The notes: generated from the letters alone by a model not told the origin. Counted from the first letter of the whole stretch, positions 774 through 60,866 are shown. The stretch: DNA of 63,349 bases, filler included, from Candidatus Woesearchaeota archaeon (GCA_023266675.1; 8 parts of 8 records of this genome joined end to end with filler, not necessarily neighbours in it); one strand, 5' to 3'. Translations and numbers: made by a program.

Positions 774-1052
774 TTATCGGTACATTGATATTTCTGCCGT
801 TTTAAGTATGAATGTAATCATTAGGCTATTATTACCAAGGTTTGTTTGTTTAAAATCCTCGATAAAGAATCCATCGTCATAGTACTTATCTAGTTCAGGA
901 TATGTAATCACTTGCTTTTCATTACTTATAGCTTTAAAAACAGTTAATACTATTTGTTTTCTTACTTTTATCCCTTTAGATAGAATGGTCTTATTATCTA
1001 ATTCTTTTGTTGCAGTTTCCATGGCGTAGCTATATTTTGAATTACCGTACAC
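774..1052 (-). CDS. Phage hypothetical protein
   Basis: ORF co-oriented with the phage gene array; start uncertain. Confidence 0.5.
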   Translation of the reverse strand: MYGNSKYSYAMETATKELDNKTILSKGIKVRKQIVLTVFKAISNEKQVITYPELDKYYDDGFFIEDFKQTNLGNNSLMITFILKTAEISMYR

Positions 1053-1417
1053 TTATAGCACTCAAAATATGTGCCTACATAATTGTGATAAAGAATAATT
1101 TGCTATTAATTTGCAATAAAAAGAGAATAATTCTTTAAATAATGTGATTTATCCGAATAAATCAAAAATATCTCGAAGAATTTATTTGTCTGGTAGAATA
1201 AAAAACTTTTGACTGTTTGAGACTTTTAGTTTTGTTTAAGCTCAAAGGAAAGTAGAATGTGGCTCAGTAATGATACGATATGAGCCGCAATGATATGATA
1301 GATGAGCTATAAATAAAAATCCCCCAGAGATAATTCTCAGGAGGATTTCAGGACTTGTCATTCCTTAACTCTGTATTCGACACCTAATCAAGTTATACAA
1401 ACATATAATAAATAATC

Positions 1418-1609
1418 TTATGTTACAAATAAAACGTTAAAATTTTTATTGTCATTTAATTCCTGGGCATATCTATAAGCTTCGCCTTGTTTCATATTGT
1501 CTTTATAGATGAAGCCAGTTTTATTTCCAATTGCAGCAGTGTTATTTGCATCTTTTCTCATACCAATTAAAATTTTTGTATCAATAAGCCAGGCCTGTTG
1601 TCTTGTCAT
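1418..1609 (-). CDS. Phage hypothetical protein
   Basis: ATG ORF with A-rich leader in a compact minus-strand array. Confidence 0.6.
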   Translation of the reverse strand: MTRQQAWLIDTKILIGMRKDANNTAAIGNKTGFIYKDNMKQGEAYRYAQELNDNKNFNVLFVT

Positions 1610-1625
1610 TTTTGTTTGAGGTTAA

Positions 1626-1841
1626 TTAAAAACTAGAATAACTAAATACAACGGCTTTTTCTGACTTCCCAGATTTTGGACCGTCAGGTTGAGCGTGTTC
1701 ACTAACAACTACATTATGGTTCTCAATATGAGATTGTACACTTCCCCAGTAGTCATCAGCTTCAGATATGACGCAGTTGATGTCGCCATGTTCAGCTCTG
1801 AGTTTTTCCAGATGAAGGATTAATTGAGATATTGTTTTCAT
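1626..1841 (-). CDS. Phage hypothetical protein
   Basis: ATG overlaps upstream stop (TAATG coupling). Confidence 0.7.
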   Translation of the reverse strand: MKTISQLILHLEKLRAEHGDINCVISEADDYWGSVQSHIENHNVVVSEHAQPDGPKSGKSEKAVVFSYSSF

Positions 1842-2359
1842 TATACATTTATTTTTCTACGAATGGAACCGTTGCTTACCTCATTATGTTTATTTCCAAT
1901 CTCGCCAAGTACTTTACGCCATTTATTATCAGTACCTAAATATTCATCTCCAATCTTTATAATGTCACCGTCACAAAGAGTTTGATAAAAAATTGGTCTA
2001 CGTGTTTTATTCTTTTGCGCAACAGTTCCAGTTCCATCAAACTTTTCCTTTAGGATTAAATCAGAATATGGATTGTCAGCATCAGCATTCTCAGCATATT
2101 TTTCTAATAACTTAAGCGCTGCTTTTAACTCAGGAGGATAATTCTTTTTGATTCTGCCATTCAATCCAGAATCACGATAATGATATTCCAAGGCTTTTAA
2201 TTGATTGAGATAGCATTCAATGAAGTTTACTTGAATATAGCCAGTAGCTTTAAAAGCTGATGGATATTCTTTAAATAATAACCCAAATAATGATATAAAT
2301 GCAGCATGAAGGTCTGTTTTTATATCAATAAGTTTGTCGAATGATTTATTTTTTTTCAT
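1841..2359 (-). CDS. Phage hypothetical protein
   Basis: 172-aa ORF tightly coupled to neighbours. Confidence 0.7.
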   Translation of the reverse strand: MKKNKSFDKLIDIKTDLHAAFISLFGLLFKEYPSAFKATGYIQVNFIECYLNQLKALEYHYRDSGLNGRIKKNYPPELKAALKLLEKYAENADADNPYSDLILKEKFDGTGTVAQKNKTRRPIFYQTLCDGDIIKIGDEYLGTDNKWRKVLGEIGNKHNEVSNGSIRRKINV

Positions 2360-2360
2360 A

Positions 2361-2645
2361 TTATTTGTAGCTTTTTAGAACATGGTCAATAACTTTTTCA
2401 TATTTAACGCCATCCAAGTCAACGGATACTTCCCAGCGATTTCCTATTGGGAAAAATCTATGTAAAGAAAAACGTCCAGGTTTATCTGAGTCTTCAGACA
2501 CAATGATAACTTTGTTTGTTGGCATTATTGTGTAGCTGATGATATTCATATCTTCAAGCCAGGACTCAGCGAGTTCTTCCAGTTTGCCAGAGGCAACGTG
2601 AAATTGTTGGTCTGCTTCTTCGCAGATGTGTCTAAGTGTTTTCAT
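2361..2645 (-). CDS. Phage hypothetical protein
   Basis: 94-aa ORF, A-rich leader. Confidence 0.7.
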   Translation of the reverse strand: MKTLRHICEEADQQFHVASGKLEELAESWLEDMNIISYTIMPTNKVIIVSEDSDKPGRFSLHRFFPIGNRWEVSVDLDGVKYEKVIDHVLKSYK

Positions 2646-2813
2646 TTTTTGTTTTTTGTGAACCGCATGGGAATTGGACCCAATACATTCCTTTGTTTAT
2701 TCAGACTTTATTGCAAGCAGTACTGAAGACTCAGGTTTTACCGTTTATATTATGCTACCACAATTCCGTTTTGCAAATTAGAATCAGGTCATCAATATGC
2801 AGCTCATATAATT

Positions 2814-3035
2814 TTAAATTTCAATTTCAACTTTTGTGCTCGTTTCAATCACTTTGTGTCCTTTTTCTTCAAGAATTTTAATTGCTTTCCACAATCCTGA
2901 GACATTGAAATATTGTCCGAAGATTCTACCCTCAAATCCATCAACTGTAATATCATCATTTCCGATGATTGATTTTGTTTTACCTGTGTCCTTGTTGACA
3001 ATTGTAACTACTTTAACTGGAACTTTGATTTTCAT
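2814..3035 (-). CDS. Phage hypothetical protein
   Basis: ORF directly downstream of class A promoter. Confidence 0.7.
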   Translation of the reverse strand: MKIKVPVKVVTIVNKDTGKTKSIIGNDDITVDGFEGRIFGQYFNVSGLWKAIKILEEKGHKVIETSTKVEIEI

Positions 3036-5778: not shown

Positions 5779-6498
5779 TTAATATTCGTCTTCTTCAAAA
5801 ATTTCTTCTTCTTCAGCTGCTTTGATAGCCTTAGCAGGCTTGGTATGAATTCTACCATATTCAAACTCAGTTGATTTATTAATCAAGAACTTTTTCATTT
5901 CAGCTTTAGAACGGTGCATCAATCCTTTAACAGTACCAATTGGCAATCCAAGTTGTATTGCTGTGTTCTCATAACTTTCTTCTTCAATAAATATTAAAGT
6001 GATGATTTGTTTGCCAAGTTCTGATTTAATAGAATTCAAAGCAGCAATAGCTTGTTCGGCACGTTCATTTTGAATATAATTTTTAAATAAGTTTGTGTCT
6101 TTATCTTCAATTTGAAAAGCAATTTCGTTCATGCTGTCATCTCCACCGTGTTCAGACATAAGAGAATCTACACTAAGAACTTCTACTTTATGTTTACGTT
6201 TAACATCAATTAAATGATTTTTTGCCAAATTATATAACCAAGTAGAGAATGCTGTTGAAAAGTCATACAGGTTTATTTTTTCAAATACCTTTGCAAATAT
6301 TTCCTGATTCATATCTTTTGCAGACTCCTCATCCATCTTAACAAATTTAAGTGCTTCATAGAACAGAGGGTTCTTATAACGTTTGTAGATTTGGTTGAAA
6401 GCATCTTGTGCTTCAACTTTATTTCCAATTTGCATTGCAAGAGCATTGTATTTATCTGCTTCAATTTGCTCGATACTTTTAACTGCTACGTTTTTCAT
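5779..6498 (-). CDS. ECF-family RNA polymerase sigma factor
   Basis: Region 2 AFNQIYKRY...AKDMNQEIFAKVF...FSTWLYNLAKNHLID; region 4 SYENTAIQLGLPIGTVKGLMHRSK. Confidence 0.9.
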   Translation of the reverse strand: MKNVAVKSIEQIEADKYNALAMQIGNKVEAQDAFNQIYKRYKNPLFYEALKFVKMDEESAKDMNQEIFAKVFEKINLYDFSTAFSTWLYNLAKNHLIDVKRKHKVEVLSVDSLMSEHGGDDSMNEIAFQIEDKDTNLFKNYIQNERAEQAIAALNSIKSELGKQIITLIFIEEESYENTAIQLGLPIGTVKGLMHRSKAEMKKFLINKSTEFEYGRIHTKPAKAIKAAEEEEIFEEDEY

Positions 6499-11205: not shown

Positions 11206-11305
11206 NNNNNNNNNNNNNNNNNNNNNNNNNNNNNNNNNNNNNNNNNNNNTTAATTAATTAANNNNNNNNNNNNNNNNNNNNNNNNNNNNNNNNNNNNNNN
11301 NNNNN
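11206..11305. other. Artificial contig spacer (also 22492-22591, 33456-33555, 36463-36562, 39426-39525, 50084-50183, 60552-60651)
   Basis: Identical N44-TTAATTAATTAA-N44 linker with stops in all six frames. Confidence 0.98.
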
Positions 11306-22491: not shown

Positions 22492-22591
22492 NNNNNNNNN
22501 NNNNNNNNNNNNNNNNNNNNNNNNNNNNNNNNNNNTTAATTAATTAANNNNNNNNNNNNNNNNNNNNNNNNNNNNNNNNNNNNNNNNNNNN

Positions 22592-33281: not shown

Positions 33282-33568
33282 GTTGTATTTAAATAACTAT
33301 CCCCTAACTAATATGATGAGAGAAAATTTATTAGTATGTAAAGAAAAAATAGAAAATTTAAAAATAATTATACAAAATATGTTAGTTGTACTATTAGTGA
33401 TAGCTTTTATTATAGTATTCATTTATACTTTTATTTATAATTCAAAAGATAAATTNNNNNNNNNNNNNNNNNNNNNNNNNNNNNNNNNNNNNNNNNNNNT
33501 TAATTAATTAANNNNNNNNNNNNNNNNNNNNNNNNNNNNNNNNNNNNNNNNNNNNAGGAGGTCCATAA

Positions 33569-36404: not shown

Positions 36405-36562
36405 GTTTATAAAATTACTAACTAATAAATTTGTAATGATAATTTTACACCTAAAATAATTANNNNNNNNNNNNNNNNNNNNNNNNNNNNNNNNNNNNNN
36501 NNNNNNTTAATTAATTAANNNNNNNNNNNNNNNNNNNNNNNNNNNNNNNNNNNNNNNNNNNN

Positions 36563-36852
36563 CGGACATTTCCGCTAGGGCTACTCGCGCCTAGATGTCT
36601 AGGTTTCCTGCTTATCCTCGCCATTCCCGCTCTGCGGAGCGGTGGCGAGGGCAGGAGACTGTTTGGGGGAAGGAAGGAATCCTTCCCCCAGCTTCGCCTC
36701 GTCTCGGCAGGGCTCGACCAACCGGCTCAGCCAACCCCCATCCTCGTTTTCATATCGGCTGTATGTGGTGTCGCTTCCGCTTCGGATTTCTGTATTGCAA
36801 GATAACGGCGGCGCTCATCCTTTAGTCATGGACGCCCTAGCGGAAATGTCCG
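36563..36852. other. GC-rich highly structured non-coding element
   Basis: 19-bp perfect terminal inverted repeat (36563-36581 / 36834-36852) enclosing several hairpins. Confidence 0.7.
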
Positions 36853-36938
36853 AGGCTCAAATGCAAATGCGCTTGACCCACCCTCCCGTTCGCGCGCAAG
36901 CGAACATTCTCCCTTCATTATTATTTTTAGTCGGAAGA

Positions 36939-38219
36939 TTATTTTCTGGTTTTCTTTACTTTATTTCTATCTTTTGTGACCTTTAATACTTGTTTTTTAA
37001 TACCATCGTTGCTAATAATTTCTAGTGCCTTTTTGAAATAGTTGTTCCTGTTTTTTGTTTTTTTGGATGTATCCTTTTTCGGATTTCTTCTGATTGGTTT
37101 TATGTTATTTAGCAACTGTTTTTGAGTCTTCTTTATTTGTTTACGTTTTAATTTTTGAATTGTATTTTTTCTTAACAAAATATTTCTTCCACTAAATTCA
37201 AGTCCGAGATAATCAACATAGTCACGACTTTTTCGTTCACCAAGACCGTCTGTAACTTTTTCGCATACCAAGTTTTCATTTACTTTTTTAAAATAGGTTA
37301 TAAAAGATTTGCTAGCGTTAATTCTAAGTTTAGATTCCTTAATCTTACTTTCAATAAATAATAGTAAACTCTCTTTTTGTTCGTCTCTACAAACAAAAAC
37401 TAGGTCATCGCTGTATCTTCTATAAAAGACGTCTGGAAAAGATGTATTTATTTCAAAATCAAAATCTATTAAGTATATATTTGCCAACAATCCACTAACA
37501 GGGCTTCCTTGAGGTATTGCTATATTTGTCCTGTTCTCATGGACAAGTCCTTTTAAAGTATTGTAAATTGCATACTTATTATTTTTTGTTTTCCTTTTTA
37601 TTTTCTTACCAAGAAAATCAGAATGCTCGATATATCTGTGAGCTGTTAATGATCTGAATACTTTATAAAAAGACTCATCAAGCTTTTCTGTATTATTAAC
37701 TTTACAAATCTTTTTCTTTAATAAACTATGGTTTAGATTATCAAAGAAGCCTTCAATGTCTTGAGTTATGACAACACATTCACCTTGCTTTTGTATGTGG
37801 TCAAAAACTTCTTGTGCAAAATGAATATTGCTTTTACCTTTGTTAGTTTCTTCAATTTTAATTTTTCTATAAGCAGTCACATTTCTACTAAGATTTAAAT
37901 TCTCTAGGTATTTCTCATATTTTTCTTGAAGAATAAAATTATAGTAACTATAAATATGGGCATCTATGTGGGACGCGTACATTATCGGTCTTAATTTTAT
38001 TGACCTACGCACTTCACCTTCTTTGTTTTTGCGAAAACGAATTTTAACCTCTTCTCTTTTTATGAAAGGTAAAAATTGATGATTCTTTATATCTTCAATA
38101 ACCTTGACTACTCTTTGAAAGGTTTCCTCGTTATCTAAATCAAGAGCATCATCAATATGCTGATATGTTCTCAGTTTCCTGTCTGGTTTTATTTGGTTTT
38201 TCCACTCTTGATATGTCAT
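36939..38219 (-). CDS. drt2: DRT2 (UG2)-type antiphage reverse transcriptase
   Basis: YQHID, HQFLPFI, KLRPIMYASHIDAHIYSYY, KSNIHFA, DIEGFFDNLNH, IPQGSPVS..LANIYL..FD, YRRYSDD, YLGLEFSG.NILLR; 426 aa with no fused domain. Confidence 0.88.
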   Translation of the reverse strand: MTYQEWKNQIKPDRKLRTYQHIDDALDLDNEETFQRVVKVIEDIKNHQFLPFIKREEVKIRFRKNKEGEVRRSIKLRPIMYASHIDAHIYSYYNFILQEKYEKYLENLNLSRNVTAYRKIKIEETNKGKSNIHFAQEVFDHIQKQGECVVITQDIEGFFDNLNHSLLKKKICKVNNTEKLDESFYKVFRSLTAHRYIEHSDFLGKKIKRKTKNNKYAIYNTLKGLVHENRTNIAIPQGSPVSGLLANIYLIDFDFEINTSFPDVFYRRYSDDLVFVCRDEQKESLLLFIESKIKESKLRINASKSFITYFKKVNENLVCEKVTDGLGERKSRDYVDYLGLEFSGRNILLRKNTIQKLKRKQIKKTQKQLLNNIKPIRRNPKKDTSKKTKNRNNYFKKALEIISNDGIKKQVLKVTKDRNKVKKTRK

Positions 38220-38585
38220 ATAAAACGCAAAGACCTCTTCCTACAAACCGTTGACATGGTTCGATACTTGGAAGAGGTCATTCAACTATGTGTTGGCTTG
38301 TATTATGTGGTCTCGCTTATTTCTAAGCTAAGGTCAACTAAAAACGTGTGTATAATAATTATAAGTCTAATCAATTGCTATAAGCAACAAATTATGATTC
38401 CATTCCTATACAATGTGCTGTTCAACCTGATGGTCAAACATTCTTACGACTGCTTAAGTGCTGTTGCCAGACTCTTGCAAATCGTTGATAACACCGGGAC
38501 TAGCTCATCTGGGAAGAGATAACGGTCAATACAAGCAGAGACCGTTCATGTAGTTGCCCACAATGCCTACTTCTTAAAAGCTAGT
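38220..38585 (-). ncRNA. DRT2-associated template ncRNA (ends approximate)
   Basis: Intergenic region directly 5' of the RT with multiple stems, long-range pairings and its own sigma70-type promoter. Confidence 0.78.
38346..38492 (+). other. Predicted 147-nt cDNA repeat unit encoding a Neo-like 49-aa repeat
   Basis: Only one stop-free frame; TATAAT 38351-38356 precedes TTGCAA 38475-38480; AAC at 38343-45 and 38490-92, exactly 147 nt apart. Confidence 0.68.
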
Positions 38586-38591
38586 AACTAA

Positions 38592-38620
38592 ACACTAGCA
38601 TAAATATGAAAAATTATCAA
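38592..38620 (-). promoter_or_regulatory. sigma70-type promoter for ncRNA-RT
   Basis: Minus strand TTGATA-N17-TAGTGT with TGn extended -10. Confidence 0.6.
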
Positions 38621-38637
38621 TCTATATTTTATAGCTT

Positions 38638-39425
38638 TTATTTACAAACGACATAATGTAAATATTCTAAAGTTTTATTTGAACTAAAGTCTCGATTCTC
38701 GTCTTTGTCTGCTTTAAATCTGTTATATTCTTGAGTAAAATATCCATACTTACCTCGTGAACCCATTATTTCTTTTATATCATCGAGTGTCATGAGGCCT
38801 TCATTATTGTAGCTTAAGAAAATATATTTTTGTTTAGCATTTGATATTAAATCACTAAAAGATTTTTTAACTTTTGTTCGAGAGCAATATAAAGATTTCT
38901 GACTCTCGTATTCTCTCAGCCCTGTTTTTCCGTGAATTTTTGGGTCATCATATTTTGCAATAGTTTCAAGTAAATGATAATTTGTCGCGTACTGTCTTTG
39001 GTTATAAGGTGGGTCAAGATATAAAATATCCCCCTCAATTTTTCCCACAAGTTTATTTATATCTTCATTAAAAACTTCGTGTTCTTGATCATTTATTATT
39101 AACTCTGCTGGCTTTAATACAAACGGCACTTGTGCTGTCTTTTTTAATTGCTTTAAAAATGCACCATAAACTGAAGCTGTGTTAGCTCGTTTATCAATAG
39201 TTTCCAAAAGTGTAGCTAAAAGAAAATAATATTCATTATCTGTAATTAACTTCTCATTTTTCCATTCCTCTATTTTCATTCTGATAGCATCACATCTCAT
39301 TCCATTCTCATCTGAAAAATATTGTCTTTCAAATTCTTGATTCTTTGTTCCACCCGAACAATAGTTTTTGTATATAAATCCTTTTTCTCCTTTTATGTTT
39401 GATAGATAATCGCAAACAAAATCTT
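38638..39425 (-). CDS. N6-adenine DNA methyltransferase (D12 class, M.NlaIII-like), 5' truncated
   Basis: ANTASVYGAFLK, DILYLDPPYNQRQY..NYHLLETI, FLSYNNEG; frame open to the contig edge. Confidence 0.9.
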
Positions 39426-39525
39426 NNNNNNNNNNNNNNNNNNNNNNNNNNNNNNNNNNNNNNNNNNNNTTAATTAATTAANNNNNNNNNNNNNNNNNNN
39501 NNNNNNNNNNNNNNNNNNNNNNNNN

Positions 39526-50083: not shown

Positions 50084-50259
50084 NNNNNNNNNNNNNNNNN
50101 NNNNNNNNNNNNNNNNNNNNNNNNNNNTTAATTAATTAANNNNNNNNNNNNNNNNNNNNNNNNNNNNNNNNNNNNNNNNNNNNTTATATAGAAATCGCAC
50201 ACACCTGTCCAGTGAGTCCAGTGCAGAAAATCATAATTTGATAGTTAAACATTCAATAA

Positions 50260-60551: not shown

Positions 60552-60866
60552 NNNNNNNNNNNNNNNNNNNNNNNNNNNNNNNNNNNNNNNNNNNNTTAAT
60601 TAATTAANNNNNNNNNNNNNNNNNNNNNNNNNNNNNNNNNNNNNNNNNNNNAGAATTCTTTACTTCATCTTCTAATAAGGTTTTTCTTTTTATCATGAGT
60701 TTAGAAAGAATGTTGAGTATTTAAATATTATCATATTTTTACTACTTAATAATAGTTTCATTTTATAATTTATTAATGAAAATTTTTAAAAGTGTACAAA
60801 ATTCAACAAGAAGTGCTTTGAAAATTAAATGTATTTAAAAAAATTAAAAAAGAGAATGAAGTATAC

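Follow-up and report, generated by a model that had tools for sequence, protein, structure and literature searches.

What does a reverse transcriptase of the DRT2 antiphage family do in a genome bin that is archaeal, and does it belong there? The question is raised by a locus in the stretch of DNA analysed here (the window; 63,349 nucleotides, filler included), which is assigned to Candidatus Woesearchaeota archaeon (GCA_023266675.1). At positions 36899-38635, the gene of a reverse transcriptase (RT) follows a putative promoter and a structured noncoding RNA (ncRNA), and we take this stretch to be a self-contained DRT2 defence cassette, complete as far as its sequence parts are concerned. The cassette probably works by gene synthesis of the Neo type known from DRT2 of Klebsiella pneumoniae (KpnDRT2), and its host is probably a member of the Patescibacteria, the contig having been mis-binned. 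This assessment applies jointly to the whole explanation, i.e. to cassette, mechanism and host, and draws on sequence comparison and on analogy with KpnDRT2.

The reverse transcriptase and its upstream RNA

The RT gene (36939..38219, minus strand) encodes 426 amino acids with a YSDD motif at residues 269-272 and a Lys-rich C-terminal tail, and the catalytic Y269, S270, D271 and D272 are invariant in an alignment of 18 sequences. RVT_1 (8.9e-17) is the sole Pfam domain above the cut-off, and there is no fused effector domain. Among the PADLOC profiles, Drt2 (PDLC03757) scores best at 1.1e-106, followed by a second Drt2 profile at 4.7e-76 and, as the next class, UG39 at 4.7e-22. The best match among solved structures is KpnDRT2 (9c0i_A, 425 amino acids; 2.5e-49, residues 15-379), the next being Cas6-RT-Cas1 at 1.1e-09, and the best NCBIfam family is the Drt2 equivalog NF041746 (315.3 bits, E 7.1e-94). 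The preliminary description of this DNA had taken the RT for a DRT2 (UG2) enzyme, and the PADLOC profiles, the search of solved structures and the tree discussed below all place it there; a grouping with retrons, group II introns or another DRT class was checked for as well, and the RT groups with DRT2.

The ncRNA (38220..38585, minus strand; ~366 nt) immediately precedes the RT and shares its strand; its 5´ domain spans 38492-38585, its template 38345-38491 and its 3´ domain 38220-38344. Its conservation was assessed in an alignment of the 460 nt upstream of the RT from 19 loci, in which the RTs of the relatives are 48-90% identical; conserved sequence starts right after a TGnTAnnnT box and extends to the RT start codon. 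RNAalifold, applied to 15 non-redundant sequences, predicts 8 helices with 48 pairs, and compensatory changes are seen at 29 of these pairs, compared to 10.7 ± 2.1 in column shuffles (none of 500 reaching 29) and 2-8 in controls with the partners slid by 1-3 columns. In the 5´ domain, a closing helix formed by ACUAGCU (38585-38579) and AGCUAGU (38505-38499) surrounds two inner hairpins (38499..38585, minus strand), and helices 1-3 have compensatory changes in 14 of 17 pairs. In the 3´ domain, a long hairpin made of GACCUCUUCC ... GGAAGAGGUC with an inner hairpin (38232..38279, minus strand) sits just upstream of the RT start codon and is followed by a U-rich run; here (helices 7-8) all cells of the alignment are paired and 7 of 15 pairs show compensatory changes. 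One predicted long-range helix of 4 pairs is invariant, and covariation is silent on it. The fold energy of the window ncRNA is -99.3 kcal/mol (z = -3.19), and no Rfam family matches it at the gathering threshold or at E ≤ 10.

The ncRNA is also found in RNA libraries. We compared the window with the assembled contigs of four runs, DNA as well as RNA. RNA run X15, for which the sample is that of the likely source, holds one contig of 278 nt that covers 38297-38574 with 0 differences, and an RNA run from peat, belonging to another study (X17), holds a contig of 268 nt that covers 38292-38558 with 3 differences. Neither contig covers the RT or the neighbouring methyltransferase gene, and both end short of the 3´ hairpin. 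The DNA run from the likely source sample (X1) has almost no contig cover over the module. RNA contigs confined to the ncRNA fit an abundant ncRNA and are hard to explain by carry-over of DNA; the 3´ limit shared by the two contigs is a weak hint that the ncRNA ends near 38292.

A putative sigma70-type promoter of the ncRNA-RT operon is located at 38592..38620 (minus strand), with TTGATA as the -35 element (38620-38615), TAGTGT as the -10 element (38597-38592), a 17-nt spacer ending in TGc (a TG extension) and a predicted start at A38585. The site is below the threshold of a simple consensus scan, which returned 14 promoter-like sites versus 10.0 ± 3.4 in shuffled sequences. The TGnTAnnnT box is found in the same alignment column in 17 of the 19 loci, and the conserved RNA begins 7 nt later. 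The sigma70 promoter of the preliminary description is thus borne out by a position conserved across relatives and not by the window's own site, which is weak and fails the scan. Likewise, the "complete" DRT2 system proposed there stands for RT and ncRNA as sequence parts, with the promoter in the window as the weak one, and the upstream ncRNA that it named agrees with the conservation in relatives, the covariation and the fold z-score.

Predicted template, junction promoter and neo gene

In the published account of DRT2, the repeat has a length divisible by 3, one frame runs across the junctions, and the halves of a promoter lie near the ends of the template (PMC11100668; PMC12039810). Judged from its sequence and that of its relatives, the upstream RNA has this design, with a template length that can be divided by 3, an antisense frame that never closes and a promoter formed at the junction. 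The predicted template for rolling-circle reverse transcription (38345..38491, minus strand; 147 nt) is the least conserved stretch of the ncRNA and has conserved sequence on either side. A short direct repeat marks its two limits, with G|TT at its start and again just past its end, which gives G|TTATC... on one side and ...ACG|TT(AT)... on the other; this repeat comprises at least GTT and reaches 8 nt in one locus (L006). When the units are taken from the same, homologous alignment columns in all 19 loci, their lengths are 141, 144, 147, 150, 159, 162 or 171 nt and thus a multiple of 3 in 19/19. The lengths of the 5´ and 3´ domains, which have 7 distinct values each and served as controls, take all three remainders modulo 3. 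In the reverse-complement concatemer, exactly one frame per locus lacks stop codons, and this is the same frame in all 19. The probability that a given frame is open in a shuffled unit is 0.014-0.054, and the real distinct units are open in 16 of 16; sense-strand frames are open in just 2 of the 16.

The collinear part of the predicted neo repeat (38346..38489, plus strand) comprises 48 codons antisense to the ncRNA, with the 49th codon spanning the junction, and is contained in a linear open reading frame (ORF) at 38157-38522 (plus strand). The predicted repeat is hydrophobic and rich in Ile and Leu, and a Met codon at 38394-38396 (Met17) is invariant in 15 aligned repeats. On the plus strand, a -35 half at 38475-38480 and a -10 half at 38351-38356 are joined only in the concatemer, where the repeat junction of the window rebuilds TTGCAA-N17-TATAAT. 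A junction promoter is found in all 19 loci, as TTG followed by CAA, ACT, ACA, CAT or CAC, then N17 and TATAAT (or TAGAAT, TAAGAT). Alignment-free template scanners were tried too and rejected as unspecific, with hits in 114 of 240 and in 432 of 480 shuffled sequences. Viral contigs yielded neither a close relative of the RT (best 30% identity) nor a match to the junction pattern.

What we observe, then, is the family of the RT, the conservation, covariation and RNA-library presence of the ncRNA, and the design of template, frame and junction. From these a mechanism can be proposed. The sigma70-type promoter would drive a single transcript consisting of the structured ncRNA of ~366 nt followed by the RT gene, and the RT would bind the ncRNA and copy the 147-nt template. 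On arrival at the 5´ terminus of the template, the nascent complementary DNA (cDNA), ending in ...AAC, could re-pair with the GTT found immediately 3´ to the template and thereby enter another round of synthesis, giving rise to a head-to-tail concatemer. Once the concatemer is double-stranded, TTGCAA-N17-TATAAT would arise at each junction and drive a messenger RNA (mRNA) antisense to the ncRNA, with one endless frame of 49 codons per repeat and the conserved Met. If KpnDRT2 is a guide, the hydrophobic repeat protein made in this way, Neo, may arrest the infected cell.

One metagenome contig (L086, positions 1-296) carries the template in permuted form. It opens with positions 82-147 of the template and a 2-nt insertion; positions 1-81 and the normal locus come next. 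Its first joint, ...ACACACG|TTATC..., coincides exactly with the predicted junction. This is suggestive of a captured cDNA concatemer, and a genomic duplication or rearrangement or an assembly artefact would account for it as well. A back-joint at the template is not listed in the four runs mentioned above, which consist of assembled contigs and cannot show rare joints.

Several points weigh against the mechanism or against so close a tie to the known systems. The second joint of the L086 copy (81|1) is non-canonical, and the 2-nt insertion comes on top of this. At 315.3 bits, the RT does not reach the NF041746 equivalog cut-off of 390 bits, and its clade lies outside NCBI's Drt2 equivalog range, though Drt2 is its best family by far. 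The -10 element of the operon promoter in the window, TAGTGT, matches the consensus at 3 of 6 positions. The jump repeat of the window clade, G|TT(AT), differs from ACA-1/ACA-2 as described for the Kpn clade; it would be functionally analogous to that pair, though it is not the published motif. The support for this clade consists of sequence and RNA contigs, and cDNA and defence are ascribed to it by analogy. Finally, there is no clear Shine-Dalgarno sequence ahead of the conserved Met, the variable sites of the template show no excess at third codon positions (21, 18, 22), and most of the locus pairs compared have more nonsynonymous than synonymous changes; because of the latter two features, the amino-acid sequence of Neo would be weakly constrained.

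The missing ribosome-binding site and the pattern of substitution also speak for a DRT2 relative whose cDNA is not a gene, either a noncoding repeat or a single copy, with the open antisense frame as a by-product. So does the preprint of Tang et al. (2024; PMC11100668), which raises "alternative mechanisms", notes that Neo is harder to annotate in divergent clades, and gives "NA" for ncRNA, cDNA and Neo alike in the Table S1 entry of a member of this clade, the RT of Parcubacteria GW2011_GWA2_40_23 (our locus L010). A by-product is difficult to reconcile with seven distinct template lengths that are all multiples of 3 when those of the flanking domains are not, with 16 of 16 distinct units open in the same frame at a chance of 1-5% each, and with an invariant Met and a conserved junction promoter, and we consider a non-gene cDNA unlikely. 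Very improbable, in our judgement, is that the 121-codon ORF at 38157-38522 (plus strand) is an ordinary small chromosomal gene for which no reverse transcription is needed. It does begin with ATG, and its frame is open for 46 codons before and 9 codons after the template in the window and in the closest relatives; in other relatives, however, the extension falls to 5-30 codons upstream and 4-28 downstream, the linear DNA lacks a promoter, the halves of which meet only at the junction, and the rule of three is confined to the template. Gene synthesis from the template is the reading that we retain.

Host of the cassette

The module is located on a contig of 2,863 bp (C15; 36563-39425 of the window), one of 83 in a bin of 1.22 Mb. 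The bin is archaeal, as indicated by TBP, EF-1alpha, aEF-2 and L7Ae. The relatives of the RT are found elsewhere. Among its 14 closest homologues, counting one genome per GTDB species (40-76% identity), 12 are from named Patescibacteria lineages and 2 from genomes labelled "bacterium". In the tree, the window RT falls in a clade with 95% support in the Shimodaira-Hasegawa approximate likelihood ratio test (SH-aLRT), together with 15 other rows (12 Patescibacteria, 3 "bacterium"), with an RT of Paceibacteria (76% identity) as the nearest. A Nomurabacteria chromosome contig aligns with 2.7 kb of C15 at 77% nucleotide identity, has the same order of methyltransferase, ncRNA and RT, and takes in part of a GC-rich element downstream of the RT as well; around the corresponding region, on a 276-kb contig, lie genes for NAD-dependent ligase, GyrB and bacterial PheS/PheT. 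Relatives of the RT were found in none of 60 kin of the bin and in none of 400 other genomes of its phylum.

Other observations count against a Patescibacterial host or leave the matter undivided. The RT is rare in Patescibacteria too (1 of 400 other sampled genomes), and prevalence alone therefore does not discriminate between hosts. The tetranucleotide composition of C15 is no outlier in the bin (72nd percentile), and a composition classifier gives a P(CPR-like), where CPR stands for candidate phyla radiation, of 0.74 for the whole contig, 0.11 without its GC-rich end and 0.03 for the RT alone; a first version of this classifier was discarded, its training set having contained homologous DRT2 DNA. 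The contigs that carry RTs of ~90% identity are without domain-specific marker genes. GlmS, encoded beside an RT of 89% identity (L087), was considered as a host marker and found uninformative, with 52% identity to Paceibacteria and 39-52% to archaeal kin (59% for a fragment). Since composition did not separate the contig from the bin, the host call rests on phylogeny and on the synteny of a 2.9-kb contig. On this basis, a bacterial host is very likely and a bacterium of the Patescibacteria the most likely one, and the archaeal location is probably a binning artefact, the contig having been sorted into the archaeal metagenome-assembled genome (MAG) by mistake. This was also the suspicion of the preliminary description, which had named a bacterium, possibly of the Patescibacteria, in place of the bin's archaeon; the Patescibacterial clade and the failure to find the RT in the 60 kin and the 400 other genomes of the phylum that were checked are in line with it.

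The cassette could instead reside in the archaeal genome after a recent transfer from Patescibacteria, with the binning correct. The ordinary tetranucleotides of the contig and the archaeal-bin-like score of its RT part would then need no further explanation, groundwater habitats are common to both groups, a match to Sigma70_r2 is present in 28 of 61 genomes of the archaeal order, one-contig genomes included, and a "Nanoarchaeia" bin (L039) also holds a DRT2. Against this stand a 2.9-kb contig without any archaeal gene, the failure to find the RT in the kin and in the other genomes of the phylum, an RT clade in which all named members are Patescibacterial, and two promoters, that of the operon and that of the junction, which are both of the sigma70 type; the RT of L039, moreover, groups with CPR rows and sits on a 9-kb contig. 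We regard residence in the archaeon as quite unlikely, and the stronger version, in which the cassette is really in the archaeon with its two sigma70-type promoters working in an archaeal cell, as slightly less likely again. If true, this would be the first case of DRT2/Neo in an archaeon, and it would hint at a working role for the sigma-like proteins of the order. A misplaced contig of Patescibacterial origin is the explanation that we favour.

Two side observations belong to this context. The first concerns L039, a "Nanoarchaeia" MAG in which the RT is on a 9.2-kb contig and groups with RTs of Saccharibacteria and Kaiserbacteria (97% support); it is perhaps another instance of this kind of mis-binning. 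The other concerns sigma factors. The bin encodes a 693-amino-acid protein with sigma-70 regions 1.2, 2 and 4 (G000:C9:12825-16028, L096), and an extracytoplasmic function (ECF)-type sigma-like protein is encoded in the window at 5779-6498. A bacterial contaminant as the source of the sigma-70 genes carried by bin contigs C9 and C10 was considered and dropped on account of the 28 of 61 genomes of the order with Sigma70_r2; as judged from these matches, sigma-70-like genes appear to be a trait of this archaeal order.

Relation to known systems and neighbouring elements

The closest point of reference is KpnDRT2 (Tang et al., 2024, preprint, PMC11100668; Wilkinson et al., 2024, PMC12039810; structures 9c0i/9c0j). 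As described there, the known system shares with the window a single RT of ~425 amino acids with no additional domain; a structured ncRNA that precedes it in the same orientation, both under one promoter; a template that is a multiple of 3, with an antisense concatemer in which one frame is free of stops; -35 and -10 halves at opposite ends of the template that meet at the junction, with a Met codon downstream of the -10; and RNA data in which the ncRNA far exceeds the RT mRNA. There are differences as well. The local alignment of the two RTs is limited to residues 15-379 (E 2.5e-49), and the window clade has YSDD where KpnDRT2 has YCDD. The template of the window clade measures 141-171 nt versus 111-129 nt in the published systems of the KpnDRT2 type, and it is preceded in the window by a 5´ domain of ~94 nt with three helices, whereas the template of KpnDRT2 starts near base 29, as deduced from base ranges quoted in the papers. 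The Ile/Leu-rich predicted Neo repeat of the window clade is a further difference from KpnDRT2, as is the host, which belongs to the Patescibacteria in the window clade and to the Enterobacteria in the case of KpnDRT2.

The Parcubacteria RT (L010) falls in the same RT clade as the window and was already catalogued as a DRT2 homologue in the supplement of Tang et al. The locus is included in our ncRNA alignment; in addition, the unspecific scanner proposed for it a candidate unit of 138 nt with TTGCAA-N17-TATAAT. In the published description of UG2 RTs, upstream ncRNAs are reported in 13 groups, and one supplement file of that study has no CPR names (Mestre et al., 2022). Our literature search for a link between DRT2 and Patescibacteria or the candidate phyla radiation returned nothing beyond unrelated passages of a 2021 review. 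A more distant parallel is DRT10, where an RT and an ncRNA are described to produce tandem-repeat DNA from a reused internal template in a telomerase-like synthesis (PMC12632851). Unlike the window system, DRT10 is protein-primed and acts with a SLATT effector according to the same source; the window RT is placed with Drt2 by PADLOC, and there is no SLATT gene on its contig.

The system is thus of a known kind, and as far as our searches reach, within which the supplement covered is that of the Tang et al. preprint, the ncRNA, template and neo design of the Patescibacterial clade are proposed here for the first time. A divergent clade of DRT2, of the kind that the published pipeline had not resolved, thereby gains a testable RNA structure, template boundaries, a GTT jump site and a predicted hydrophobic Neo repeat. 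To our knowledge, DRT2 is the only system that writes a gene which exists nowhere in the genome, and our analysis suggests that gene synthesis of this kind extends to ultra-small bacteria with reduced genomes. The RNA contigs and the one junction-bearing contig are hints of an active system in communities of groundwater and peat.

The immediate surroundings of the module are limited by the way in which the window was put together. The 63-kb sequence consists of eight contig pieces of the bin, chained via seven linkers of the form N44-TTAATTAATTAA-N44 (11206-11305, 22492-22591, 33456-33555, 36463-36562, 39426-39525, 50084-50183 and 60552-60651). Since linkers separate the contigs, genes outside 36563-39425 are not true neighbours of the module; this applies, e.g., to the ribonucleotide reductase on its left and the FAD oxidoreductase on its right, which belong to other contigs. 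As a practical caution, gene neighbourhoods in the window cross artificial linkers and should not be read across them. The only true neighbour is a D12-class N6-adenine DNA methyltransferase (38638..39425, minus strand), which is cut by the contig end with loss of ~100 N-terminal residues, its frame being open from 38638 to 39423. The methyltransferase noted beside the RT in the preliminary description is therefore real, if truncated.

Relatives provide a wider view. Homology with contigs that carry RTs of ~90% identity ends sharply at 36939 and at ~38607-38629, and the restriction-modification set that precedes the DRT2 cassette varies, with at least five different sets located upstream of the RT in L082, L084, L085, L087, L088 and L093. 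These sets include BsaWI-like genes, NgoPII with a C5 methyltransferase, DpnII with GmrSD, DpnI, and D12 and N4/N6 methyltransferases, and serine recombinases are found near the cassette in two contigs (L093 and L086). From this arrangement, the DRT2 module appears to be a cassette in variable defence islands. The defence-island setting suggested earlier for the window, where only the truncated D12 methyltransferase is retained, finds its counterpart in the varied restriction-modification genes that precede the modules of the closest relatives. In a DNA run (X3), one contig joins 36898 to 38636 and skips 1,737 bp, i.e. exactly promoter, ncRNA and RT. This joint could be an "empty site" with the methyltransferase directly beside the GC-rich element, although the indication is weak, with a shorter side of 30 letters and a likeness of 88%.

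The GC-rich element itself (36563-36905) lies downstream of the RT, has a closing helix of 19 bp and variable inserted hairpins, and is cut by the contig end. Copies are present at L088:4775-5225, L084:4213-4663 and L093:11320-11640, and compensatory changes are found in 17 of 77 pairs in a set of only 4 sequences. It has no Rfam family at the gathering threshold or at E ≤ 10, and ARAGORN does not report a transfer-messenger RNA (tmRNA). Because it is absent after the RT in L082, L085 and L087, the element is not part of DRT2. Its summed contig depth in run X3 is 1000-3000 compared to ~60 over the RT, which suggests that the element is widespread or present in multiple copies.

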